A stretch of DNA of 64,000 bases from an uncultured Candidatus Saccharibacteria bacterium (GTDB taxonomy: Bacteria; Patescibacteriota; Doudnabacteria; UBA920; 2-01-FULL-46-14), in contig CAYNFS010000001.1 of assembly GCA_964396685.1 (NCBI GenBank), positions 16,638-80,637 of the forward strand, read 5' to 3'. Below the pieces are notes generated by a model that saw only the letters and a list, made by a program, of their open reading frames with translations, did not search any database and had not been told where the DNA came from. Of this stretch, positions 1,957 through 56,187 are shown piece by piece. A program made the translations under genes and the position numbers. How positions within the stretch are numbered: position 1 is the stretch's first letter; the number at the start of each line of letters is the position of its first letter.

Positions 1957-3171
1957 TCATAGGTTCTGTCCGATATTGTAAATCGGCAAAATGAGTCCCA
2001 CGGCCAAGACGCCAACTACGGCGCCGATCAAAATGACCAGGACAGGCTCAATTATGGATGAGAGATTTTTGACGGTGTCGTCAATTTCCGCCTCGTAAAA
2101 ATTGGAAACTTCCGCCAACACCTTTTCCATGGTTCCTGTCTCCTCGCCGACCTGAATCATCTGCGTTACCATCGGGGTGAAAAGTTTGGGATATTTCTCC
2201 AAAACCACCACCAAATCAACCCCGACTTTCACTTTTTCGGAAGCGTCGGCTATGGCTTGCCGGTAGTAAACATTGTTCATGGTGTCGCTGGTAATCTTCA
2301 AAGCCTCGACAATCGGCATGCCGGAACGAAGAAGGCCGCTAAAAATGATAGTAAACCTCGCCAGATTGAGTTTTTTCACGATTTTGCCGATGATCGGCAG
2401 ACTTAGATTGAGCTTATGAAAAAACGCGTGGCCTGATGCGGTTTTGTGCCAAAACCATATCCCGAATACCGACACTGCGATAACCGCCAAAAGGACCAGC
2501 GAATAGCTCGCGAATAAGTCCACAATCCTGATGATGATTTTGGTGAGCACCGGCAATTCGGCATCGAACTCCTGGAATGTTGAGGTTAGCTTCGGCAGAA
2601 CGAAGGAAAACATGATATAGCCGATGATGAGCAACGCAGCCATCACGACTGCCGGATAGGTGAGCGCCCCTTTGGTGCGGCGCAACAAATTGTAATCACG
2701 CCCTATCTGGGTGCCCAGATACTCCAAGGTTTTATCCAGCTCGCCGCTTTGTTCTCCAACCTTGACCATATTGACAAAGATGGCAGAAAAAATATTGGGA
2801 TATTCACCCAGGCTTTCAGACAAAGTTTTGCCGCCTTCCACATTGTGCGCCACCGCGCTGATGACATTCCGAAAATAGGGATTCGGCATTTGTCTCGTCA
2901 GCACAAGCAAAGCTTTGGATACCGGAAGGCCGGCTTTGATGGTTACGGCCAGGTTGTTTATAAAAGTCAGCTTCTCCAGCAATGAAACATGAGAAAAAAT
3001 TACGTTTAAGGCTCGACTTCTCAAGGAGCCCAGTCTTCGTTCCTCAATTGAAGTAGGAAGCAGGCCCTTGCTTCTTAGAGCCTGCCCTACTGCTTCCCGG
3101 GACGGCGCTTCTGCGATGTCCGAGACCATTTTGCCTTCCTGGTCCCGCGCTGTATATATAAATTCAGGCAT
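1957..3171 (-). CDS. pilC: type II secretion / type IV pilus platform protein PilC/GspF family
   Basis: Two T2SSF-like repeats and polytopic membrane segments. Adjacent to a GspE-type ATPase. Stop overlaps ATG 1960 (ATGA). Confidence 0.85.
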   Translation of the reverse strand: MPEFIYTARDQEGKMVSDIAEAPSREAVGQALRSKGLLPTSIEERRLGSLRSRALNVIFSHVSLLEKLTFINNLAVTIKAGLPVSKALLVLTRQMPNPYFRNVISAVAHNVEGGKTLSESLGEYPNIFSAIFVNMVKVGEQSGELDKTLEYLGTQIGRDYNLLRRTKGALTYPAVVMAALLIIGYIMFSFVLPKLTSTFQEFDAELPVLTKIIIRIVDLFASYSLVLLAVIAVSVFGIWFWHKTASGHAFFHKLNLSLPIIGKIVKKLNLARFTIIFSGLLRSGMPIVEALKITSDTMNNVYYRQAIADASEKVKVGVDLVVVLEKYPKLFTPMVTQMIQVGEETGTMEKVLAEVSNFYEAEIDDTVKNLSSIIEPVLVILIGAVVGVLAVGLILPIYNIGQNL

Positions 3172-3172
3172 T

Positions 3173-4915
3173 TTACTCCTTCGTCACCCTTAAGATTTCG
3201 GAGATTGTTGTAAGCCCCATATGGGCTTTGATGAATCCGTCCTGCCACATCAAAATCATGCTCTCCTCCACAGCCCGCTCTTGGATTTGACTGGTCGCCG
3301 CTCGAGACAGAATAAGTTTGGCAATGTTTTCCGTGATATCCAAGACTTCATAAATGCCGATCCGGCCCCGAAAACCCGTGCGGGAGCATTTTTCGCATCC
3401 TTTGCCGTGGTAAAAATCCACGTCTTTGAGATTTTTGGCTTTTTTGTCCAAAACCCCTTCCCGCTTCATCACTTCCATAAGGTGCAGGAGATCAAAATCC
3501 AAAGATAAACTCTGAACGGTCTTTTCGTCCAGACGCATCGGAGTTTTGCAGTCCTGACAGATTCTGCGCACCAGCCGTTGTCCCACAATGGTATGGATGG
3601 TTGAGGCAATTAAGTATGGTTCAACCCCAATGTCCAAAAGACGGGGAAGAGCCCCGGCCGCATTATTGGTGTGAAGCGTGGAAAGCACGATGTGGCCGGT
3701 CATAGCGGCGTGCACCGCTTCTTCGGCTGTTTCCAGATCGCGGATCTCCCCGATCATGATGATATTGGGATCCTGCCGCAAAAGAGCGCGCAGCCCCACC
3801 GCAAAAGTGAGGCTGATTCTGGGATTGACCTGCATTTGATTGACTCCCGGGACACGGTACTCAATCGGATCCTCAATGGTGCTGATATTTACCGATTTTG
3901 TATTTAATTTGCTCAAAATAGTATACAGTGTCGTGGATTTACCAGAACCGGTGGGGCCGGTAATAAGCGTCATGCCGTGAGGTCTGCTTAAATTTCGCTT
4001 GATGACCTCAAGAGAGGTCCTGGCAAAGCCCAAATCTTCAAAGGTCAAAGCTTTGGCCCCCTCATCCAGAAGCCGCATTACTACTTTTTCCCCGTCAAAC
4101 ACCGGGATGGTGGAAACGCGAAACGAGATATTGTATTCGTCAGTCTGAAGCTTAAAGCGGCCATCTTGGGGAAGACGATGCTCGTCAATTTTGAGATTGG
4201 ACAGAACCTTGATCCGGGCGATTAGTGCCGGCTGAATGACTTTCGGCAAGGTCATGACATCGTGCAAAATGCCGTCGATGCGGTAACGCACTGTCACTTC
4301 TTTTTCCTGCGGCTCAATGTGGATGTCCGAGGCCCCTTCAAAAATGGCGTACTCAAGCAGAGTATCCACCACCCGCACCACCGGAACTTCCTCCGCCATT
4401 TTTTTGAGCTCCTGACCTTCTTCCGCAGGCGCCGCTTTTTCCGCTTTTTTCGTGGTGAGGATTTTTTCAAACTCGGCCTTGAGGCTGGTATGATACTGGG
4501 AAAGCGCGTAGTCCATCCCGGTTTTGGTGGCCAAATACGGCTTGATTACAAAACCGGTTTTCTTTTTGACAAACTCCCTGGTTTGCAAATCCTCGGGATC
4601 AGTCATAGCCAAGTCAAGCTCGTTGCCCTTTTTGCGAAAAGCGATCACCTGATGACGGCGAGCTATTGGCTCGGGTATGATTTTTAAATCTTCCTGCGCA
4701 ATTTTTACCTTTGTCAGATCCGCAAACTCCACTTGCAGAAAATCGCTGACGAGCTTTGCGAGCTTGTCTTCCGGAATGATCTTGCGCACCACCAAATAGG
4801 AAGCCAGATTCTGATTTTTGCTCTCGGCCTCGGCTTTGAGTTTTTCAAAATCCTGCTCCGCGATAATTTTCTGCCCGACCAGAATTTTTTTCAGGTCAGT
4901 TGAAGCAAGCGCCAT
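3173..4915 (-). CDS. pilB: type IV pilus assembly ATPase PilB (GspE family, with N-terminal GSPII_E_N domain)
   Basis: Walker A GPTGSGKST, Asp and His boxes, C-terminal tetracysteine (CQDC...CEKC), N-terminal GspE_N-like region. Confidence 0.9.
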   Translation of the reverse strand: MALASTDLKKILVGQKIIAEQDFEKLKAEAESKNQNLASYLVVRKIIPEDKLAKLVSDFLQVEFADLTKVKIAQEDLKIIPEPIARRHQVIAFRKKGNELDLAMTDPEDLQTREFVKKKTGFVIKPYLATKTGMDYALSQYHTSLKAEFEKILTTKKAEKAAPAEEGQELKKMAEEVPVVRVVDTLLEYAIFEGASDIHIEPQEKEVTVRYRIDGILHDVMTLPKVIQPALIARIKVLSNLKIDEHRLPQDGRFKLQTDEYNISFRVSTIPVFDGEKVVMRLLDEGAKALTFEDLGFARTSLEVIKRNLSRPHGMTLITGPTGSGKSTTLYTILSKLNTKSVNISTIEDPIEYRVPGVNQMQVNPRISLTFAVGLRALLRQDPNIIMIGEIRDLETAEEAVHAAMTGHIVLSTLHTNNAAGALPRLLDIGVEPYLIASTIHTIVGQRLVRRICQDCKTPMRLDEKTVQSLSLDFDLLHLMEVMKREGVLDKKAKNLKDVDFYHGKGCEKCSRTGFRGRIGIYEVLDITENIAKLILSRAATSQIQERAVEESMILMWQDGFIKAHMGLTTISEILRVTKE

Positions 4916-7156
4916 TTATTTTTTGCACTTTGTTTCAAGCTCTTTCAAAAACTCCTGCCCTTCTTGCTGAAAGACAGGATTAAGCCTAATGGTTTCCAAA
5001 ACTTGAATGCGCGCGTTGTCGGTATCGCAAATCTCGCCATAAGCCACCGCAAGTTTGGCGTGAAGCTCGGCATTTTGCGGATCCAACTCTGCGGCTTTTT
5101 GGTAGCTTTCCGCCAATTTGAAATTATCCCCTGCCTCCAAATAGGCTCTGGCCAAATTGGTATAATCTCTGGAAGTAAGCTCGTATCCTAACTCTTTAAG
5201 TTTTGCCAGTTCCTCGGTAGCGATGTCCTCCCGTTTCGCGATAATCCCGGCCAGCAGGTAATTAAAATGCGACTCTTTGGGCTCGGGATTCTGGGCAATC
5301 GCCGATCTAAAGTACTCAAGGCCCTCTTCAAACTGCTTTTTGGAAAAAGCCGCTTGACCCAATTCAAAATAAATTTGGGGCCTCGTGGGAGAAAGCGCCA
5401 AGGCCTTTTGCCCCAAACTTAGCGCCTCGTCAATCATTTGTTGATTGCCCGTAAAGCGGTTTATCACGCTTACGAGATACAAATAATTTTTGACATCTTC
5501 CGGAAAATCTCTGATGCTTTTTCTAAGCTCGTCCATTACATATTGATAGACCTCGCTTTGCTCTTGAGAAGAAAGCTGTCCCGAGAACACAGCTTCGCTG
5601 GCATAATCCACCAGCCTCTGCCGGATTTCTTCATCCATATAAGTCCCGTAAGATAGGGCTTTTTTGAAAGTCGGCAAAACTTCCCGGTACTGCTTGACTT
5701 TTGCGGCCTTGATCCCTTGGGTCGTATAGTAGTTTGCAAAAGCGGGTCTCAAGTTTACGAAGAGAGCCGCAAAAAACATCAAGACGGCTAAGATCGTCGG
5801 CATCACAAAGCCCGGATGATAACCGGTGCGAGCTTTGGCCGGAGAAGATGACAGATATTGATTCGTCAAAAAAGCGATGTTGCCAAAAAGCAAAAATGAA
5901 AGCATGTAAGTTGCTTGTGTGTCAAACACAAAAAGATTCTGCAGGAAATAACCTGCCAGAAGCACGCCCAAAATTAAAATCATTCTAGGTTCCAAGTCCG
6001 GAGGCTTTTGAAGCCAAAGTTTAAATAAAATCCAGAAAGCCGCCGCAAACATGACAAGATACGCCAAAAAACCAATCAAACCGGCTTGTACCAGAACGTC
6101 AAAGACCACGTTGTGGGCGCGGTCAAACCAGATTTGACTGCCCTGATCTTTGAAAATTCGGGCTGGAAAATATTTGTTGAAGGCAATGTGATAATTTTCA
6201 TAGCCCCAGCCGAAAACCGGTCGGTCTTTGAACGCCTGGTAAGAAGCATTCCAGGTGTCCAAGCGCGACTGGGTCGTGATATCCCTTGGCGAAATGGTCG
6301 CAAGCCTGTAAAGCGTGTTGCTTCGGCTCACCCAGGAAGCGTCGCGGTTGAAATACAAAATGAAACCAAACGCCAAAAGCAAAGCCAAAAAGCCAAGCGA
6401 GAGGATTTTGGTCTTGCGTTTTTGGGATTTAAAGACATTGACTAAAAAATATAAACCGAAAGCCAGAGCCGCCGCCAGAATCGCCCCTCGAGTCTCTGTT
6501 TGGTACAGGATGTATAGTTCAAACCAAAACACAAACCAAAGATATACGCGCTGCGTTTTGGATTTTGCCTCCTGCAGGAGGTAGAGGGAAAGAAAAACTC
6601 CAAATAGCATCACTGCCGCAAAAAACGAAGCGTTGCCGATGGTGCCCACGATCCGGCCGCCGCGGAAAATGTTTGAAAGAATTGGCAAATCCAAAAGCTG
6701 GCTTAATCCCACCAAGGCGTTCAAAAAAGTCATGGTAATGGCGGCCAACAAATACCTGTGCCAATCGCGGCGAGTCTGAAATACCGCCGGCAAAATCGTA
6801 AAGTAAGCCGCGAAATGAAGTATGGTAACAAGCCCCTCGCCCCGCTCGATCGTCCCCCAGAAACTGTGGTTGAAATTCACGCCAAAAAGGCTTGCGACAA
6901 AAATTACACCGATATAAATCCATACTGCTTTTGTCAGCCAATTCCACTTAATTCTCAATTCCGGGTACTTTACGGCCAAAACCGCATAAACCACGACGGC
7001 CAGTTCCACCAAAAGCCTGAAATACAAAATTTTCGTGGTAATAAATGGAAACAAAAAAACGCTCCACACCAGAAGCGGCATGACGAGCAAGGCATACAGA
7101 ATTAATCTTAGGAGTTTATACCACTTATTTGTTTCCAGCGCGTCACTGTTTGCCAT
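4916..7156 (-). CDS. O-antigen ligase (Wzy_C) family polytopic membrane protein with C-terminal TPR domain; candidate O-oligosaccharyltransferase/ligase
   Basis: Wzy_C-type segment (ETRGAIL..., FGWGYENY...AHNVVFDVLVQAGLIGFL), more than 10 TM helices, C-terminal TPR repeats. Immediately upstream of pilB. Confidence 0.7.
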   Translation of the reverse strand: MANSDALETNKWYKLLRLILYALLVMPLLVWSVFLFPFITTKILYFRLLVELAVVVYAVLAVKYPELRIKWNWLTKAVWIYIGVIFVASLFGVNFNHSFWGTIERGEGLVTILHFAAYFTILPAVFQTRRDWHRYLLAAITMTFLNALVGLSQLLDLPILSNIFRGGRIVGTIGNASFFAAVMLFGVFLSLYLLQEAKSKTQRVYLWFVFWFELYILYQTETRGAILAAALAFGLYFLVNVFKSQKRKTKILSLGFLALLLAFGFILYFNRDASWVSRSNTLYRLATISPRDITTQSRLDTWNASYQAFKDRPVFGWGYENYHIAFNKYFPARIFKDQGSQIWFDRAHNVVFDVLVQAGLIGFLAYLVMFAAAFWILFKLWLQKPPDLEPRMILILGVLLAGYFLQNLFVFDTQATYMLSFLLFGNIAFLTNQYLSSSPAKARTGYHPGFVMPTILAVLMFFAALFVNLRPAFANYYTTQGIKAAKVKQYREVLPTFKKALSYGTYMDEEIRQRLVDYASEAVFSGQLSSQEQSEVYQYVMDELRKSIRDFPEDVKNYLYLVSVINRFTGNQQMIDEALSLGQKALALSPTRPQIYFELGQAAFSKKQFEEGLEYFRSAIAQNPEPKESHFNYLLAGIIAKREDIATEELAKLKELGYELTSRDYTNLARAYLEAGDNFKLAESYQKAAELDPQNAELHAKLAVAYGEICDTDNARIQVLETIRLNPVFQQEGQEFLKELETKCKK

Positions 7157-15793: not shown

Positions 15794-17096
15794 GAATACT
15801 GGCTTGACCGTCAGGCGTATGAATCAAATATGTCAGAAACTCATCGCGGCGTTGTTTATCAGTTTGAATAAAATGCCGCTCTGGATTATCCAAAAGTTTT
15901 TCCAGCTCCCGTTCGGTCTTGGCATAAGAAACCAGCTCTGGATAGTGGGTAAAATAATCCCAAGGTTTTGCCGGAATCAAATCGCCGAAATAAGGAGAAA
16001 TTACCAATCGATTGGCCAGGAGTCCTTCGATTAAAGTTGTGGAAAGGTAACCCAAAACCGCAAAAGACGATTCAATGCACTCCCGAGGACTCGGGGCGCT
16101 GGTGATGGTGAGGTTTGGGATCGAGCGGCTAAAATTTTCGCGCTTAATCTTCTGAACATAGTCGAGATAAAAGCCTGCGGCTTTGGTTTTTATCACCACG
16201 CTGATCTCGGGATGTTTGAGGGCATAGTTCATTACCCAGAGATGGAAGTCTTCCGCTCGTCTCTCCCCCAGCTTAATCGTTTCCGGATCGGAAACAAAAC
16301 GCGGCAGACGATGCTTGACATAAAAAGAGAAAAGCACAATTTGCTTCGTTGGAGTCGACCCGCGGGTCTGAAAATAATAATCCAACCGCGGCACGCCGAC
16401 TATTTTTATCTGCTCTTTTGCCAAACCTTTGACTTTGCCGAGCAACGCTCCCAGAATCTTTTCGTTATAGGCCAAAAATTTGTGGCCGACGAACCGCCGA
16501 TTGACATACATGTCCTCCGCCCCTTCAAAAATACCCGCCGACAAGCCTTCTTTATGCAAAACCAGAAAAGGAATATTATCCTCCACACAAACTTTGGCCA
16601 GCTCCTGCTGAACAAGATAACCAAAATTTCCGGAAATGACTGCGTCGATTTTTAAATATCTGCGCAGATACGGAAACATCTTTTTAAGATACAGATAATA
16701 ACGCCGTTTCCCCTCTCGGCCGTGATCGGTGATATGGTAATTTGCTTCGGTCCATCCGGCTCTTTCATCATGATGCGTAAAGTGTTTATAAATAATCGCC
16801 CAGTAACTTTTGTGAACAGAAACATAATTAAGCTTGCCGCTAAACTCGGCCATGGCGCTGATGTCATCGTAAAAAATGCTTCGTCCTAAAACCAAAGCCG
16901 TGTAGTGACTGCCCCGGTCGATTTTTCCGGAAATCAAAGCCAGTACGGCAGCGGTCAGGCGGGGACTGTGAACATAAACACTGCCCTTGATCAGCAGCGG
17001 AAAAAACACCGCTCTCAATTTTACGATAATTTTTCTGCCAAGATCATTTGTCATATTCGATTCCAAAATCGGGCAATCCGAAACAGCGCTGCCCAA
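15732..17096 (-). CDS. large GT-B-like hypothetical protein, paralog 1 (possibly Capsule_synth/KpsS-KpsC-like or TagF-like transferase)
   Basis: Shares architecture and length (about 450-500 aa) with ORFs 25487..26998 and 36774..38201. No classical GT2/GT4 motifs. Confidence 0.4.
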   Translation of the reverse strand: MGSAVSDCPILESNMTNDLGRKIIVKLRAVFFPLLIKGSVYVHSPRLTAAVLALISGKIDRGSHYTALVLGRSIFYDDISAMAEFSGKLNYVSVHKSYWAIIYKHFTHHDERAGWTEANYHITDHGREGKRRYYLYLKKMFPYLRRYLKIDAVISGNFGYLVQQELAKVCVEDNIPFLVLHKEGLSAGIFEGAEDMYVNRRFVGHKFLAYNEKILGALLGKVKGLAKEQIKIVGVPRLDYYFQTRGSTPTKQIVLFSFYVKHRLPRFVSDPETIKLGERRAEDFHLWVMNYALKHPEISVVIKTKAAGFYLDYVQKIKRENFSRSIPNLTITSAPSPRECIESSFAVLGYLSTTLIEGLLANRLVISPYFGDLIPAKPWDYFTHYPELVSYAKTERELEKLLDNPERHFIQTDKQRRDEFLTYLIHTPDGQASIRAEAEIINTIREFAHANSKN

Positions 17097-50860: not shown

Positions 50861-51990
50861 TTTTGCAGTATCTTAATTGTTCTTTCTATCATATTTTTCT
50901 TTGAGAGATTTACCTTAAATTTCTCAAACGCGCTTCTGGCACTGCTCGCAAGCTTTTGCCGTAAGGCAGGATCACTGTAAACTTGCAAAATAGCCTTTTT
51001 CAGCTGCTCTTTATTATTATACTCGATCAAAATCCCGCTTACTTTGTCCTCGACAAGCTCCGCGTTCCCGCCAATGCGAGTCGCAATGACGGGCAACCCA
51101 GCTGACATCGCCTCCAAAATCGTGTGCGACAACCCTTCGTAACCGGTATTGAGCACAAAAAGATCAGACGAGCCGAATTTTTTATACAATTCAGCACGGG
51201 GCAGATCATGATAAATCTCAAGCCTGATATCCGGATAGATTTGTTGCAGCTCTCCTACCGCCTTCCTCAATAATTCAAAGCCTTTCCAAGGAACATCGCG
51301 CCCGGCAGAAACAATCAGAAATTCTGACCCCCTCTCTTTCTCCCCCTTAACAAGGGGGAGATGAAGAGGGGGTATCGCGTTGTAAATTACTTCAACGTGG
51401 CTTTCTTTGACCCCCCAGCCCATAACCAAATTTTTCAAGTACAATGAGGGCACAACGACTTTGCAGGCCGCCTTGCAAACGCGAATCTGGATGTCGCGCA
51501 TCTTGGCAATTTTTTTGGGATAGCGGGGCAATTTCTGAAATTCGTCAATCAATTTATCAGTCAAGCCACGGCCCATGGCCTGCTCCCAGGAATAATCCCC
51601 GGTAATTTTCACGACATAGGGTTTTTTGAGCACGCGAGCGGCCAGAGAGGTCGGGTAGCCGGCCGAGACGGGATCTTGGGCGTAAAATATGTCAAAACCC
51701 CTGCCGAATTTTTTTACAGCGCGGAAATATTTATAGTAATGCCAGGGCTTGAACCAGGAGCGTGTGACGCGTGTTACTAAATAATCGTCATTGCGAGGAG
51801 TCTGCGACGAAGCAACCCCTGTGAGATTGCCGCGCTCCCTGCGGTCGCTCGCAATGACACTAGAATTTCCATAGGTAATCACCCTCACCTCATGCCCTAA
51901 TTTCTTTAACCCCCATGCGAGGAATTCACTATACGTCGCCGGCCCTCCTATCTCGGGCGGGAAAATCCCAGTACAAATTAAGATTCTCAT
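50848..51990 (-). CDS. glycosyltransferase family 4 (contains in-frame palindromic elements A2 and B1)
   Basis: EGLSHTILEAMSAGLPVIAT. Insert peptides PPLHLPLVKGEKERGSE and VIASDRRERGNLTGVASSQTPRNDD. Confidence 0.85.
   Translation of the reverse strand: MRILICTGIFPPEIGGPATYSEFLAWGLKKLGHEVRVITYGNSSVIASDRRERGNLTGVASSQTPRNDDYLVTRVTRSWFKPWHYYKYFRAVKKFGRGFDIFYAQDPVSAGYPTSLAARVLKKPYVVKITGDYSWEQAMGRGLTDKLIDEFQKLPRYPKKIAKMRDIQIRVCKAACKVVVPSLYLKNLVMGWGVKESHVEVIYNAIPPLHLPLVKGEKERGSEFLIVSAGRDVPWKGFELLRKAVGELQQIYPDIRLEIYHDLPRAELYKKFGSSDLFVLNTGYEGLSHTILEAMSAGLPVIATRIGGNAELVEDKVSGILIEYNNKEQLKKAILQVYSDPALRQKLASSARSAFEKFKVNLSKKNMIERTIKILQKCVS
51328..51372. repeat. palindromic element family A, copy A2 (short 7-nt spacer)
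   Basis: Identical left arm. 45 nt, in frame. Confidence 0.8.
51787..51858. repeat. palindromic element family B, copy B1 (gtcattgcga...tcgcaatgac termini)
   Basis: 10-bp perfect inverted termini plus inner cgacgaagcaa arm. 72 nt, in frame. Confidence 0.8.
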
Positions 51991-53681
51991 TTGAATTGTC
52001 CGTGATAAATGTAAAAGGCTTCGCGACCCTGGTCATCATAAATAATCTCCGGAGTAATTCCTTGATTTACAAAATTATCTACCAAAATCTTGGTTTCAGG
52101 GAAATTGACCCGGGACTCGCGAGCCACCTCCTTTCCAGATACCACCAGATATAAGCTGTCTAAATTCAGGCTATTAAACATGGTAAGGTCGTTCTCGCTT
52201 CGGACAACCTTTAAAAATTCTTCCGAAGTCATAATCAAAAAGCGGTGATATTGCTTCCATCTTTCAAAAATCCACATGGTGGCAAACCAGTTTGTTTGAA
52301 GATCGTAAATCAGAAGCGAGGCAAAAGGTGTTGAACCTTCCCGCAGCATCGCGAAATCAACAGCCTCTGGTTTCATGTCTTTGTACCACCAGAGCCTTGC
52401 TGCTTCTTGAACATTGGGCGGCGAGCGTTTACCGGCAAGCAGTTCTGTAATTTTTTGATCCAGCTGGGTATAGCCGTAATTTTCTACACGAAAATCAGAA
52501 TATAAAAATTGACCCCCAACAGGCTTGCGTAAATGATTCGTATTTATGATGTAAAATACAAAAAAAACTGAAACAATTCCTACAAGTGCCCAAACCAGAT
52601 ATTTAAGCTTTTGATAAGAATTGGTCCTTTGCCAAGAACCGAATCCTAAACCCAAAACCAAAGCAGCAAATGGACTTGTCACCCCCAACCATCTGGCGGC
52701 ACCTCCCACAACCGGAAAAATGATTAGCATGGAACTGATTACTAAAACCGGCAAAAGTTTGACCGATAAAAACCGCTCTTTGCGCAGAAAAAAGAGCAGA
52801 GTTGAAAACGATAGGACAACAAGCGCAAAATACGGGATTGAATATCCTTCAACGAGTGTGTTTACAACTGCCCCAAAATTCCACCGCAGCGGCTGGACAC
52901 GATTGGAAAGTAGAGTCCAGTCAGCATGCTGCTGTTTGAAAAGGTCCGAAAACTGGACGTCAAAATGCCCACGAGCCACATACAGCATGAGATTATAAAT
53001 TATTATCGGGCTTATCGCCAAAACGAAAATTATAACGCCCTGCCAGAATTTTTTGTTTGAGAAAATTTGCCTCTGCTTCCAGAGAATATACAAAAAAAGT
53101 CCCGGCAAAACAAAAAGAAAGGTGTATTTGGTCAAAAAGGCCAATCCGAGGTAAAAACCGGCATGCCGGAAAAATTTTGGGCTGTCCTCCAAAGCTTTGA
53201 GCAAATACAAGATACCAAGCAACAGAAAAAAAGTGAAAACACTTTCCAATAATCCAATCCGCCCAGTCCAAATGAAGTAATTATTCAAAACCAAAGCGCC
53301 CATTGAAAGCAGCCCCGCTTCTATTCCCGCCATTCGTTTGCCAATCAAATAAACCAAAACTGCGGAACCCAAAGCGGCAAAAACAGAAGGAAGTCTGGAA
53401 ATCAAAATTGAAACGCCAAAAATTTTAAAAAACCAATTTTGAATCAAAAAAAACAGCATGGGATGATCGTGGAAAGACAAATATGACCACCATGGCCTTT
53501 CCCCAAACCACTGTACCGGAGTGGTCTGTTTCAAAGAGGACAAAAAATCAAAATAGCCAAGCGAACGGAAAGCGTAGTGTCCGTCATCGCCCAGCATGTC
53601 CTGCCGCGTCAGGCGGAAAAAAAGCAGGAACGCGGCGAGCAACATCAGACTGATAAAAATTATTTTCTGATTCTTGGACAC
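51987..53681 (-). CDS. glycosyltransferase family 39/83-like (ArnT/PMT-type) polytopic membrane glycosyltransferase
   Basis: Eleven or more TM helices. N-terminal DDGHYAF-type periplasmic loop resembling the GT-C ArnT/PMT DE/DD motif. Confidence 0.7.
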   Translation of the reverse strand: MSKNQKIIFISLMLLAAFLLFFRLTRQDMLGDDGHYAFRSLGYFDFLSSLKQTTPVQWFGERPWWSYLSFHDHPMLFFLIQNWFFKIFGVSILISRLPSVFAALGSAVLVYLIGKRMAGIEAGLLSMGALVLNNYFIWTGRIGLLESVFTFFLLLGILYLLKALEDSPKFFRHAGFYLGLAFLTKYTFLFVLPGLFLYILWKQRQIFSNKKFWQGVIIFVLAISPIIIYNLMLYVARGHFDVQFSDLFKQQHADWTLLSNRVQPLRWNFGAVVNTLVEGYSIPYFALVVLSFSTLLFFLRKERFLSVKLLPVLVISSMLIIFPVVGGAARWLGVTSPFAALVLGLGFGSWQRTNSYQKLKYLVWALVGIVSVFFVFYIINTNHLRKPVGGQFLYSDFRVENYGYTQLDQKITELLAGKRSPPNVQEAARLWWYKDMKPEAVDFAMLREGSTPFASLLIYDLQTNWFATMWIFERWKQYHRFLIMTSEEFLKVVRSENDLTMFNSLNLDSLYLVVSGKEVARESRVNFPETKILVDNFVNQGITPEIIYDDQGREAFYIYHGQFK

Positions 53682-53789
53682 GTCTTTGAAATAGGAATAT
53701 GCTATTATTAACTCGCCAAAATCATATCATATATCCGCACAACAAACCAATTTATGCTATTATAAACTCATCATATCGCCCAAAAACGA

Positions 53790-53834
53790 GTTATCGGAAA
53801 TATTGCTCTTTTAAAACAAATATTTTTAGGAAGC
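53790..53834. repeat. left arm of an approximately 45-bp imperfect inverted repeat flanking the small ORF cassette
   Basis: gttatcggaaatattgctcttttaaaacaaatatttttaggaagc. Its reverse complement recurs at 54133-54208. Confidence 0.8.
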
Positions 53835-53852
53835 TACATTAAACAACCAAAA

Positions 53853-53858
53853 AGGAGG
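53853..53858 (+). promoter_or_regulatory. Shine-Dalgarno AGGAGG, 6 nt upstream of ATG 53865
   Basis: Perfect AGGAGG. Confidence 0.6.
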
Positions 53859-53864
53859 CGTGCC

Positions 53865-54092
53865 ATGACACGTTATACCGCGCTTGTTATTCAAAGCGGA
53901 GGCGACATTCGCTGTAAACCATACCAGCACAAAGTTACTGGCAAATGGGCTGGAGCAGTAAATCTGTACCATGATGGTTCTCTCCATACCACGCTACTTT
54001 CTTCGAAACCGGTCTTTGAATCTTCCGAGATGGCAGTGGCCTATATGGAGGATGTCGTCAAGCGGGTTCGCGCCGCAAATGTGCTGACCTAA
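53865..54092 (+). CDS. small hypothetical protein (75 aa) inside the IR-bounded cassette
   Basis: Strong SD, ORF followed by two hairpins. No recognisable domain. Confidence 0.45.
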   Translation: MTRYTALVIQSGGDIRCKPYQHKVTGKWAGAVNLYHDGSLHTTLLSSKPVFESSEMAVAYMEDVVKRVRAANVLT

Positions 54093-54132
54093 AGTCAGCT
54101 TCCAAATTTCCGGGGAGACGCAACGTTTCCCC
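54083..54132 (+). terminator. two consecutive hairpins (gctgac-ctaaa-gtcagc; ggggagacg-caa-cgtttcccc) after the small ORF, possible terminator
   Basis: Stems read directly from the sequence. No clean U-tract. Confidence 0.3.
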
Positions 54133-54208
54133 GCTTCCTAAAAATATTTGTTTTATTTTGGCTAACCGCCAAAAGGCTATCGCCTAAAAGAGCAATACAT
54201 CCGATAAC
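54133..54208. repeat. right arm of the inverted repeat (interrupted by an approximately 29-nt insertion containing the ttttggc/gccaaaa mini-hairpin)
   Basis: gcttcctaaaaatatttgtttta ... taaaagagcaatacatccgataac. Reverse complement of the left arm with 2 mismatches. Confidence 0.8.
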
Positions 54209-54295
54209 ACGGCATATCTGAAAAAATAAGCCACGTAGCAGGCTGGTTTTTGGCAAATTGCCGATTTTTCTTTTATTTGTTATGCTTACGCCACC

Positions 54296-54586
54296 ATGGC
54301 ACAAATAAAAATACGCGAGAAAATTCGTAAACAATTTCCTTTATTAAGGGAAAAATACCATGTCAAAAAGATCGGGATTTTTGGCTCTTTTGCCCGTGGC
54401 GAACAAGAAAAGGGAAGCGACTTGGATGTTCTGGTGGAATTCGAAACTCCCGTCAGCTTTTTTGATTTTATCAGGCTGGAAAATTTTTTAACCCATGCTT
54501 TACGCAAAAAAGTGGATTTAGTTTCCAAGAGGGCCGTCAAGCCAGCGGTAAAAAAGGAAATTTTCAAAGAAGTGCAATATGTCTAA
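54296..54586 (+). CDS. minimal nucleotidyltransferase (MNT) antitoxin-type protein
   Basis: GIFGSFARGE...SDLDVLVEF (GS...DxD). Confidence 0.8.
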   Translation: MAQIKIREKIRKQFPLLREKYHVKKIGIFGSFARGEQEKGSDLDVLVEFETPVSFFDFIRLENFLTHALRKKVDLVSKRAVKPAVKKEIFKEVQYV

Positions 54587-54923
54587 AAGAGGGATAAGAC
54601 TCTACCTTGAAGATATCCAGAATTCTATTCGAAAAATAGAGAAGTATACACGTGGCTCTAATTTTGATAAATTTTCCAAAGATGAAAAATTGATTGACGC
54701 AGTCGTCAGGAATCTCTCTGTTATCGGCGAAGCGGTCAGGAGTATTCCCCGGCATATGAAGGCCAAAAATCCAGACATGGCTTGGAAAGAAGTCAAAGGC
54801 ATGAGAAACAAGGTTGTTCATGAGTATTTTGGCATTGATGAAGAAATCTTGTGGAAGACTATTCAAGAAGATCTGCCAGTTTTCAAAAAGCAAATCGCCA
54901 GACTATTAAGCGATATTAAATAA
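54579..54923 (+). CDS. hepT: HepT-like HEPN toxin (DUF86)
   Basis: Rx4-6H HEPN motif RNKVVHEY. Overlaps the MNT gene stop. Confidence 0.8.
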   Translation: MSKRGIRLYLEDIQNSIRKIEKYTRGSNFDKFSKDEKLIDAVVRNLSVIGEAVRSIPRHMKAKNPDMAWKEVKGMRNKVVHEYFGIDEEILWKTIQEDLPVFKKQIARLLSDIK

Positions 54924-54957
54924 AAGAAAAATCGGCAACTTCAGATACACTTGAACG

Positions 54958-56187
54958 TTATGCTTTAACCAATCGCTCGAGAAGCGTTCCCATTTTTTGA
55001 GCGATAATCTCCCAGTCGTATTTTTCTTCCACGAGTTTTCGGCCGTTCTGGCCGAGCTTTTCCCGCAACTGCCCGTCTTCCAGGAGCAGTTTTATTTTTT
55101 CGGCTAAATCTTTGGGGTCATCGGCTTTGACGAACAAGCCGTTAGGATTTGACCCACTCTCACTCTCCCCCTCCGCCCCGTTGGCGAGGAGGAGAAAAGG
55201 AGAAAGAAACTCCGGAATTCCCCCGACCGGAGTGCCAATCACCGGCAATCCCGCGGCCATGGCTTCCAGAAACGAGCTTCCCAAGCCCTCGGAGCGCGAA
55301 GGGCGGACAAAAATGTCGGCTTGGCTTAAGTAATCGGGGATCTTCTCCGACTCGACATTTCCGACAAATTCTACCATGTCTTCCACGTTTAAATCTTTTG
55401 CAAGCTGTTTAAGTTTAACTTCTTCAGGCCCGCTTCCCACAATCAACAACTTGACGTCATTGCGAGGAGTCTGCGACGAAGCAATCTCATGATTTTGGGA
55501 TTGCTTCCTCCTCGACAAGCTCGGGGTCGCAATGACAGCCATTGCGTGAATCAAAATATCAATCCCGTTCTTCGGCACCAGCCGGGAGGTTGTGATTATT
55601 TTAATAATTCTGCCCCCTCTCAATCTCCCCCGTGATAAGGGGGAGAAAACAGAGAAGGTGACTCCATTCGGCACAACTTCAATCGGACGAGTCGCTCCTT
55701 CCGCTTTTGCCCAATCGGCAAGATATTGGCTGATTGCCTGAATGCAGTCCGCTCGCCTGAAAATTTTCTGCCACTGCTTCTTAAAGCCTCTGACCCTGCG
55801 ATGAATGTGGACAATCTCGTCTCCTTCCTGCAATGTCAGCAAAAACTTTACTTGAGGAAACCTGCGCAGATACATCAAAGCCGCGGCTCCCGCGTAAGCC
55901 GCCATAACCCCCCAGACAATTTGATATGGACGCTCCTGATGAAATTTTTTAGCAAGCCTAAATGCCAAAACCGGATACAAATACCTCCCCAAGCGACTGC
56001 CGAATCCTACGCGATAGACATTGACGTTGCCTATCCGCTCGAAAGATTTGTGCTTGCGGCTGAAACGGCAGGTGACCAAATCAAAATCAAAGGACGGCAA
56101 ACGATCGGTAATGTTCCTGACCGCGAGTTCTGCGCCTCCGATCAAGGGCTCGTAAGCAATGCTGAAAATCAAGATACGGGGTTTCAT
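54958..56187 (-). CDS. glycosyltransferase family 4 (contains in-frame palindromic elements B2 and A3, plus a possible degenerate third copy)
   Basis: SFLEAMAAGLPVIGT. Insert peptides VIATPSLSRRKQSQNHEIASSQTPRND and FSPLSRGRLRGGR. Confidence 0.85.
   Translation of the reverse strand: MKPRILIFSIAYEPLIGGAELAVRNITDRLPSFDFDLVTCRFSRKHKSFERIGNVNVYRVGFGSRLGRYLYPVLAFRLAKKFHQERPYQIVWGVMAAYAGAAALMYLRRFPQVKFLLTLQEGDEIVHIHRRVRGFKKQWQKIFRRADCIQAISQYLADWAKAEGATRPIEVVPNGVTFSVFSPLSRGRLRGGRIIKIITTSRLVPKNGIDILIHAMAVIATPSLSRRKQSQNHEIASSQTPRNDVKLLIVGSGPEEVKLKQLAKDLNVEDMVEFVGNVESEKIPDYLSQADIFVRPSRSEGLGSSFLEAMAAGLPVIGTPVGGIPEFLSPFLLLANGAEGESESGSNPNGLFVKADDPKDLAEKIKLLLEDGQLREKLGQNGRKLVEEKYDWEIIAQKMGTLLERLVKA
55456..55536. 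repeat. palindromic element family B, copy B2
   Basis: gtcattgcgaggagtctgcgacgaagcaatc...gattgcttcctcctcg...gtcgcaatgac. Confidence 0.8.
55613..55658. repeat. palindromic element family A, copy A3 (divergent arms)
   Basis: ccccctctcaatctccccc-gtgataa-gggggagaaaacagagaagg. Confidence 0.65.

Follow-up and report, generated by a model that had tools for sequence, protein, structure and literature searches.

A 419-bp inverted-repeat unit in a Patescibacteria genome as a member of a gene cassette family probably moved by site-specific recombination

A 64,000-nucleotide (nt) stretch of the genome of an uncultured Candidatus Saccharibacteria bacterium (assembly GCA_964396685.1, contig CAYNFS010000001.1, forward-strand positions 16,638 to 80,637; hereafter, the window) contains a 419-bp unit, at positions 53790-54208, in which long inverted repeats enclose an open reading frame (ORF) for a small protein of 75 amino acids (aa). 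Comparison with related loci suggests that this unit is probably one cassette of a family found in the candidate phyla radiation (CPR)/Patescibacteria, and that cassettes of this family are moved by site-specific recombination in a manner resembling integrons and Xer dif modules.

The preliminary description of this DNA, made from its letters alone, had proposed inverted repeats of about 45 bp with a 29-nt insert in the right arm, and this architecture was recovered by a repeat finder run on the window. The repeat spans 53787-53834 and 54133-54211 overall and consists of outer arms of 27 nt (53787-53813/54185-54211, 89% complementary) and inner arms of 23 nt (53812-53834/54133-54155, 100% complementary), with the 29-nt insert splitting the right arm only. 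Each arm matches the window at these two sites only, and none of 100 dinucleotide shuffles, which served as the control for this search, contained an arm match at three or fewer mismatches. A fold of the full element as RNA (53780-54220), a check proposed at the outset, yielded -165.8 kcal/mol versus -107.8 ± 5.6 kcal/mol for shuffled sequences (z = -10.4). The ribosome-binding sequence AGGAGG, its six-base spacing from ATG, and the 75-aa ORF are all as originally described; of the two hairpins placed directly after the stop codon, one does lie 3′ of it (54112-54132), but the other spans it (54083-54099). The ORF (53900-54100) has a G+C content of ~50%, versus 35-42% in the immediate flanks. 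The features of the cassette are listed below, where family A denotes the family of the 75-aa ORF and family B that of an unrelated 90-aa ORF found in relatives.

53787-53813, plus strand: outer left arm, with the boundary box GTTATCGGAAAT at 53790-53801 and the sequence GTTnTnnGAAAT, invariant across four arm classes
53812-53834, plus strand: inner left arm TAAAACAAATATTTTTAGGAAGC, on the 5′ untranslated region (UTR) side of the frame, kept with compensatory changes in 12 distinct cassettes
53853-53858, plus strand: Shine-Dalgarno sequence AGGAGG, six bases ahead of ATG, conserved in family A and family B cassettes
53865-54092, plus strand: 75-aa ORF of family A (ATG at 53865) with a predicted alpha-beta-beta-beta-alpha fold, assigned from homologues, predicted structure and codon-position pattern
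54083-54099, plus strand: hairpin GCTGAC-CTAAA-GTCAGC with the stop codon inside it, from sequence and fold
54098-54103, plus strand: first GCTTCC copy, offering the left-arm GGAAGC a second pairing option
54112-54132, plus strand: G+C-rich hairpin GGGGAGACG-CAA-CGTTTCCCC, directly 5′ of the right arm, with compensatory changes in the consensus fold (columns 451-473)
54133-54155, plus strand: inner right arm GCTTCCTAAAAATATTTGTTTTA, from the repeat finder, window search and covariation
54156-54184, plus strand: variable right-arm insert, a TTTTGGC-TAACC-GCCAAAA hairpin plus GGCTATCGCC, from sequence and fold
54185-54211, plus strand: outer right arm, with the boundary box ACATCCGATAAC at 54197-54208

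A search for further copies of the repeats and the ORF, also proposed at the outset, located the same frame around family A ORFs in ~12 independent CPR/Patescibacteria loci that differ in their flanking gene contexts (counts of loci and cassettes from the metagenome and genome scan, here and below, are among the matches listed). In these loci, the left arm lies ~30 nt 5′ of the start codon and the right arm 27-55 nt 3′ of the stop codon. An identical 22-mer of the window outer left arm was found in loci L016, L018, L019, L028, L031, and L069; the right-arm insert is represented by other sequences or hairpins in L016, L018, L019, L028, and L069 and is absent in L084. The cargo also varies: L028 carries two tandem cassettes with the same frame, the first enclosing a family A ORF and the second an unrelated 90-aa ORF (family B), which represents a conserved protein family of its own and is likewise found inside this frame in the Wolfebacteria contigs L069 and L070. 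Scanning for repeats bounded by GTT and AAC added three cassettes whose arms differ in sequence and whose cargo is enzyme-like, namely a P-loop kinase-like ORF (cassette X, L069), a HAD hydrolase (Y, L018), and a methyltransferase (Z, L084). Neighborhoods of the homologues share no recurrent neighbor except the recombinase family discussed below. The 27 matches of an arm 16-mer in a scan of viral contigs were attributed to chance, as none of them extends.

Although at least four arm classes can be distinguished, every class keeps 5′-GTTnTnnGAAAT on the left and ACATCnnAnAAC-3′ on the right, the invariant positions being GTT, T5, G8, AAAT / ACATC, A, AAC. The two arm mismatches noted in the window are real but do not represent decay: the same 2x2 mismatch, AA on the left versus TG in the reverse complement of the right arm, is fixed in all related cassettes. 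The remaining complementarity is maintained by compensatory change. In the outer arms, 97.2% of cells are paired and 12 of 20 pairs have changed on both sides, a result reached by none of 500 shuffles, while controls with slid arms were 38-56% paired; in the inner arms, 94.9% are paired and 9 pairs have changed on both sides, as compared to 2.6 ± 1.2 in shuffled data (0 of 500). Cassettes X, Y, and Z have outer-type arms only and no Shine-Dalgarno sequence, their arms abutting or even containing the start and stop codons; conversely, L072, L013, L020, and L002 retain the inner frame (inner arms, Shine-Dalgarno sequence, GCTTCC copy, and G+C-rich hairpin), with the right outer arm lost or replaced. 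The cassettes therefore have two separable layers: an inner frame that is kept and travels with ORF families A and B, and outer boxes that belong to the cassette boundary.

Tandem, co-oriented cassette arrays occur in L018, L028, L069, and L084, and the sequence between successive cassettes has a constant order: the AAC end, a tail, two hairpins, an anti-tail pairing with the tail, 3-6 nt, and the GTT of the next cassette. This inter-cassette palindrome of ~105-125 nt is Y-shaped, contains bulges, and is conserved in structure and variable in sequence. Three junctions with different tails fold as single-stranded DNA into the same Y shape (z = -4.0, -5.0, and -5.9), and their tail/anti-tail stems change together across junctions.

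The earlier remark that no recombinase is nearby holds for the window but not for the relatives, since 4 of the ~12 independent loci (the L002 group, L019, L028, and L069/L070) have a XerA/IntI-like tyrosine recombinase gene within ~1.2 kb of the cassettes. This gene is divergent from the array in L019, L028 (where it is truncated), and L069/L070, and on the same strand in L002. Among NCBIfam models, the best matches are to the XerA-type 'tyrosine recombinase/integron integrase' (224 bits, above its cutoff of 220) and to integron integrase TIGR02249 (217 bits, below its cutoff of 265); VchIntIA, tied with XerA, is the best solved structural relative. For the L070 recombinase, alignments begin near residue 35, and its real start is probably a downstream Met.

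Evidence for movement comes from L069 and L070, which are 99.9% identical contigs from different samples and differ by 850 bp, corresponding to one cassette plus the palindrome that follows it. The L070 contig reads ...AAACCAGTTATCGG, and L069 reads ...AAACCAGTTCTGCG...(850 bp)...GATACGTTATCGG. In this single natural example, the only bases common to both junctions are GTT, which places the crossover within this triplet and not in the longer ACTTCGCAT repeat that homology-driven deletion would favor. The extra cassette of L069 occupies the recombinase-proximal position, directly beside the recombinase gene.

In the window, the cassette interrupts a glycosylation operon. The genes for PMT (GT39; 51987-53681) and GT4 (54958-56187) are 1,276 nt apart, and the intervening genes are on the opposite strand. 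Because these two genes are directly adjacent (7 nt apart or overlapping by 8 nt) in the relatives L078 and L079, whose operons have the same gene order, the segment 53682-54956 is, judged from gene order, an insertion into this conserved operon. It also contains the MNT-HepT gene pair, for which the preliminary description had overlooked both its own 29-nt inverted repeat (54255-54283/54913-54941, 90% complementary) and its inclusion in the same insertion as the cassette. The features of the inserted segment, several of which correspond to elements of an inter-cassette site, are as follows:

53682-54956, no strand assigned: full extent of the insertion, comprising the cassette and MNT-HepT and lying between the start of PMT/GT39 and the stop codon of GT4
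54209-54221, plus strand: tail ACGGCATATCTGA, the 5′ strand of the base stem of the following site, conserved in L016, L019, and L028; pairs with 54941-54947
54229-54244, plus strand: hairpin 1 of the post-cassette site (AGCC..GGCT), its position matching GGTCTTTTCCGAAAGACC-type hairpins in L028 and L069
54255-54283, plus strand: 5′ half of hairpin 2, the left arm of the repeat around MNT-HepT, overlapping the terminator-like TTGGCAAATTGCCGA and T-run (54250-54274)
54296-54586, plus strand: MNT-type nucleotidyltransferase, antitoxin-like (Pfam NTP_transf_2/Polbeta)
54579-54923, plus strand: HepT-like ribonuclease, toxin-like (Pfam PF01934, E = 3e-31)
54913-54941, plus strand: 3′ half of hairpin 2, the right arm of the repeat around MNT-HepT, from the repeat finder and fold
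54941-54947, plus strand: anti-tail TCAGATA, pairing with TATCTGA (54215-54221) in the fold
54957-54963, plus strand: right junction GTTATGC, reading GAAC|GTTATGC, in which TTA is the GT4 stop codon on the minus strand

The window anti-tail is the same element as TTCGCATA / TTCGGATG, which stands ahead of the next cassette in L069, L028, L018, and L084. With a 4-nt loop in place of MNT-HepT, 54197-54965 adopts the same Y-shaped fold (z = -7.0), suggesting that the variable loop of the site accommodates the toxin-antitoxin pair; in other loci, hairpin 2 has a loop of 15-95 nt, and in the window this loop holds two genes. The AAC and GTT triplets are present at the site ends, while the remaining R-box consensus positions of attC are unmatched.

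For comparison, integron attC sites are imperfect palindromes of 57-141 nt with the order R''(RYYYAAC)-L''...L'-R'(GTTRRRY) and with unpaired or extrahelical bases. By analogy, a tyrosine recombinase would cut G|TT in a folded, single-stranded, attC-like site, in which CnnAnAAC/GTTnTnnG would correspond to the R box and the tail/anti-tail stem to the L box, with the small asymmetric loop forming the spacer and the two hairpins the variable end. The left and right arms of a cassette would extend the R-box stem when the cassette is circular or the ORF is looped out. For the window, a circular cassette would join ...CACTTGAAC to GTTATCGG, and the empty site would join the PMT side to GTTATGC. Since no recombinase was found within the 64 kb, the window copy is classed as a lone, CALIN-like cassette (after clusters of attC sites lacking integron integrases).

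The resemblance to integrons, especially to sedentary chromosomal ones whose attC sites are long and almost identical, as in the Vibrio cholerae repeats (VCRs), and to CALIN or solo cassettes, extends over several features. Both include co-oriented arrays of mostly promoterless, diverse, and often small ORFs (among them a toxin-antitoxin pair), a divergent tyrosine recombinase of the Xer/IntI group at one array end, and imperfect palindromes (~105-125 nt in CPR) that are conserved in structure rather than sequence and have AAC...GTT ends. The crossover falls within G|TT, the new cassette is recombinase-proximal in the one natural example, and lone cassettes without a recombinase occur elsewhere in genomes. 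In contrast to integrons, the CPR boxes read CnnAnAAC/GTTnTnnGAAAT and not RYYYAAC/GTTRRRY; the 5′ end of a CPR cassette is complementary to the 22-48 nt upstream of its own AAC box, forming a stem that encloses the cargo; the arms carry a fixed 2x2 mismatch; a junction of two hairpins makes up the variable end; at least one recombinase is without the extra IntI domain; and the hosts belong to CPR/Patescibacteria, a group for which no description of integrons was found. In the IntI domain and the R-box consensus, the CPR cassettes depart from integrons in the strict sense.

Several observations weigh against the interpretation of the window unit as one of a family of recombining cassettes. Neither a recombinase gene nor a second cassette copy was found in the 64-kb window. 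All recombinases score below the cutoff of the integron integrase model TIGR02249 (217, 154, and 115 bits versus 265), and the Wolfebacteria recombinase (L070) has no IntI-specific extra domain, with 16 residues where VchIntIA has ~59 and an end-to-end alignment with XerA; the Falkowbacteria enzyme (L002) has a 43-residue insert at the position of this domain, presumably without the IntI-type motif, as none was recognized in it. The boxes agree with the integron consensus in the GTT and AAC triplets only, and known attC sites do not have long complementary stretches on the two sides of the cargo gene. The distance from the half-site on the anti-tail side to GTT varies between 7 and 11 nt, which would fit a folded site better than a fixed double-stranded core. 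No integron model predicts MNT-HepT inside the loop of hairpin 2, and a single crossover at GTT does not account for the 108 nt on the left side of the cassette (53682-53789). The action of the recombinase on the sites is inferred from its adjacency and from one natural polymorphism. Finally, the excess of G.U pairs on the sense strand, described below, is small and partly due to one inherited position, which is why an additional RNA layer is only inferred.

The best surviving alternative, which is nonetheless considered unlikely, is that small modules are exchanged by the single housekeeping Xer recombinase acting on double-stranded dif-like sites, as in the pdif modules of Acinetobacter and in integrative mobile elements exploiting Xer recombination (IMEX). 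The sites would be TTCGCATA-N7-10-TATCGGAAAT at left junctions and CCGATAA-CACGGC-ATATCTGG at right junctions, and the inverted repeats would represent inward-facing half-sites plus accessory sequence. This account agrees with the recombinases, which score as XerA-type above the model cutoff and align end-to-end with archaeal XerA. Bacterial dif has the form GGTGCGCATAA-TGTATA-TTATGTTAAAT, and the junction TTCGCATA..TTATCGGAAAT resembles it. Modules bounded by inversely oriented sites, including toxin-antitoxin modules, are a hallmark of dif modules, and both systems comprise discrete modules, often toxin-antitoxin pairs or single small genes, that shuffle between contexts with a recombinase of the Xer family. 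Xer systems with a single recombinase, moreover, have the xer gene linked to the recombination site, and sites of this kind are exploited by mobile elements (PMC2731167, PMC5357621, PMC9765430). The proposal does not account for the 22-48 bp of end complementarity held by compensatory change in nonconserved positions, which recognition of duplex half-sites does not require, nor for the covarying tail/anti-tail stems. Duplex cores of tyrosine recombinases have a fixed central region, whereas the half-site spacing in CPR varies over 7-11 nt. The CPR cassettes also differ from pdif and IMEX modules, which use XerC/XerD and 28-bp duplex cores, in having one recombinase gene physically linked to the array, in their long, folded, and covarying sites, and in their chromosomal location in ultra-small genomes. 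They fall outside the dif modules, defined by 28-bp sites with a fixed central region of 6-8 bp, because of this variable spacing and because their complementarity extends far beyond 28 bp. A simple model of attP x attB recombination with identical spacers at both ends was rejected, as the left and right spacers differ.

A purely RNA-based explanation, in which a stem between the 5′ and 3′ UTRs stabilizes or processes (via RNase III) mRNAs for small proteins or gates their translation and the cassette is not mobile as such, is improbable as a full account, although part of the evidence agrees with it. Besides the stability of the fold, this evidence includes covariation with a G.U bias on the sense strand: the inner arms comprise 298 Watson-Crick, 10 G.U, 3 A.C, and 11 other pairs, and one position is U-A in the window, U.G in five loci, and C-G in two. 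The stop-codon hairpin has changed on both sides in L006 (GCTGGC/GCCAGC) and contains a U.G pair on the sense strand in L016; the first GCTTCC copy, read by eye, changes with the left arm in L028 (GGGGA/CCCCTC) and L014 (GGAGAA/TTCTTC). RNAalifold recovered the arms in the consensus of eight cassettes from two ORF families, and the inner frame is retained where outer arms are lost. Consensus promoters and terminators are missing from the intervals between the arms and the ORF: the only terminator-like site found is 3′ of the right arm (54250-54274), and a promoter scan detected a weak site only, at 53675-53703, 5′ of the left arm. Inside that arm, a sigma-70 promoter was rejected on inspection, TTGCTC and TATTTT being spaced by 12 nt. 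A scan of the cassette region against Rfam 15 found no family (best match E = 0.38, far below the gathering score).

On the other hand, an RNA element would leave unexplained the empty site in relatives, the one-cassette polymorphism with its GTT crossover, the tandem arrays with unrelated cargo, the invariant GTT/AAC boxes with their fixed mismatch, the inter-cassette palindrome, and the adjacency of recombinases, and in cassettes X, Y, and Z, which have no Shine-Dalgarno sequence, the stem swallows the start codon. Long-stem RNA control, one of three explanations offered in the preliminary description, is plausible for the inner 23-bp part, which is kept with the ORF and shows the U-A/U.G/C-G series, but it is not the whole story. 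Co-transcription and pairing of the inner arms are plausible, and these arms probably also clamp the 5′ and 3′ UTRs of the mRNA. Together with the Shine-Dalgarno sequence, the stop-codon hairpin, and the G+C-rich hairpin, the inner arms may constitute a separable expression module, in which 5′ UTR-3′ UTR pairing would most likely protect or process the transcript. Such a module would resemble the 5′-3′ pairing of hok-type mRNAs and the RNase III stems flanking rRNA or phage genes in its long duplex around a coding or functional RNA and in its covariation on the sense strand. It differs from them in that the 75-aa protein is soluble and acidic rather than a membrane toxin, no antisense RNA gene was seen, and the duplex is common to unrelated ORFs and embedded in a recombination cassette.

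The other two explanations offered at the outset fared less well. A miniature inverted-repeat transposable element (MITE) or similar insertion cassette, with terminal repeats recognized in trans by a full-length insertion sequence transposase and the ORF as a passenger, is very unlikely: passenger genes in repeat-bounded units do occur in varying contexts, and the mobile nature of the unit was correctly anticipated, but not its kind, as none of the ~12 insertions has a target-site duplication, there is one copy per window or locus, no examined neighborhood encodes a transposase, the right flank past the repeat (tail and hairpins) is conserved, the arms differ among cassettes yet stay complementary by covariation with few invariant positions, and the indel crossover lies inside GTT beside a tyrosine recombinase gene. 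A fim-like invertible promoter or gene switch, flipped by a recombinase via the two arms, is highly improbable despite the inverted repeats and the tyrosine recombinases near some relatives: with respect to the asymmetric AA/TG arms and the tail, the ORF points the same way in all cassettes, and two independent assemblies of the window organism agree in this orientation.

The 75-aa ORF is, as judged from sequence comparison and structure prediction, a real and conserved gene without an assigned function. The absence of a recognizable domain in its product, stated in the preliminary description, was confirmed in that Pfam and PADLOC searches returned no match; the protein is nevertheless conserved, with homologues in 22 clusters (57-100% identity, no informative name), 210 representatives in a profile search, differences from relatives that are most frequent at third and least frequent at second codon positions (e.g., 14/9/26 at first/second/third positions), and an AlphaFold (AF2) model of high confidence (pLDDT 93.7) comprising a helix, three strands, and a helix. 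Thus, the remote-homology search proposed earlier was productive at the profile level, but a Foldseek search of the model gave nothing significant. The alpha-beta-beta-beta-alpha order is shared with the double-stranded RNA-binding domain (dsRBD)/UPF0339 (DUF1508) fold; judged from its sequence, the protein is acidic and without basic dsRBD motifs. Distant members of families A and B without the frame occur in L015, L023-27, L029, L075, L080, L082, and L083, and the protein families are therefore older and broader than the cassette. In L031 (212-648), a family A cassette has intact arms and an ORF frameshifted after about residue 54, representing either a pseudogene or an assembly error. Members of family A or B (P0193 and P0208; L012 and L014) are assigned to bins labeled archaeon, Ignavibacteriales, and Gammaproteobacteria, which may reflect misbinned CPR contigs or a wider spread.

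Additional repeats were observed in the window and in the related loci. Between the PMT start and the cassette, a direct repeat TATGCTATTAT(T/A)AACTC is present at 53698-53714 and 53753-53769, 55 nt apart; one of its copies reads TATAAT on the minus strand and may give PMT a promoter after the operon was split. The sequence TATCGCCCAAAA (53774) resembles TATCGCCTAAAA in the right arm (54178) and may be a remnant of another cassette end. In L028, anti-tail-like TTCGCATAACAC(C/G)GA.. motifs at 4562-4582, 4696-4709, and 4828-4855, between the truncated recombinase gene and the first cassette, may be empty or decayed sites. The cassette of L014 is flanked by a perfect 36-nt direct repeat TTATTTTACCAAACATTCCCTAATTTTAGAAAAAAA (4852-4887 and 5367-5402), whose copies are followed by TTCGCATAT and TTCAGATAT, respectively, suggesting near-identical inter-cassette sites in one genome, similar to Vibrio VCRs. 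In L002 (Falkowbacteria, GCA_018651725.1), the perfect palindrome GTTTCACGTGAAAC, which starts with GTT and ends with AAC, occurs at least 10 times in 4 kb (2777-6600); its copies flank the recombinase gene and the family A cassette, one lies inside a CCA-adding enzyme ORF, and the palindrome could be a minimal site or an element of the repetitive extragenic palindromic (REP) type. Around distant family B members, ~20 co-oriented small ORFs without the GTTnTnnGAAAT signature in L083 (1-12300) may form a different kind of array, and large serine recombinases are encoded within a few kb in the Moranbacteria-type contigs L072 (5751-7376 and 10238-10300), L077 (9746-10249), and L080 (11648-12294), with a reverse transcriptase also near the gene in L072.

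Movement of these cassettes by site-specific recombination would explain the two opposite-strand modules interrupting the long glycosylation operon of the window. A bolder and more tentative possibility is that it represents an undescribed route of gene capture in Patescibacteria that parallels integrons, combining an XerA-like recombinase without the IntI domain, folded sites cut at G|TT, and a stem that is completed by the two cassette ends, places every cargo gene within a hairpin, and also acts as a 5′-3′ clamp on the mRNA. Full-text literature searches yielded no report of integrons, attC sites, or dif modules from CPR/Patescibacteria, and we could not find this site architecture described. 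If true, this would mean that the integron principle arose in ultra-small symbiotic bacteria independently or at a very deep branch, with one duplex serving both as a recombination stem and as an mRNA clamp. It would extend the continuum between integrons and Xer systems by tying a recombinase without the IntI domain to folded attC-like sites, and it bears on the origin of integron integrases from Xer recombinases. The sequence pair GTTnTnnGAAAT...ACATCnnAnAAC provides a simple, searchable signature for accessory genes in CPR metagenomes; the family members identified here are labeled Falkowbacteria, Moranbacteria, and Wolfebacteria, with some in bins labeled archaeon or Ignavibacteriales. CPR genomes are tiny, and the ways in which these bacteria gain genes are poorly understood; a system of cassettes governed by site rules of its own would constitute a concrete route of gene exchange among them.

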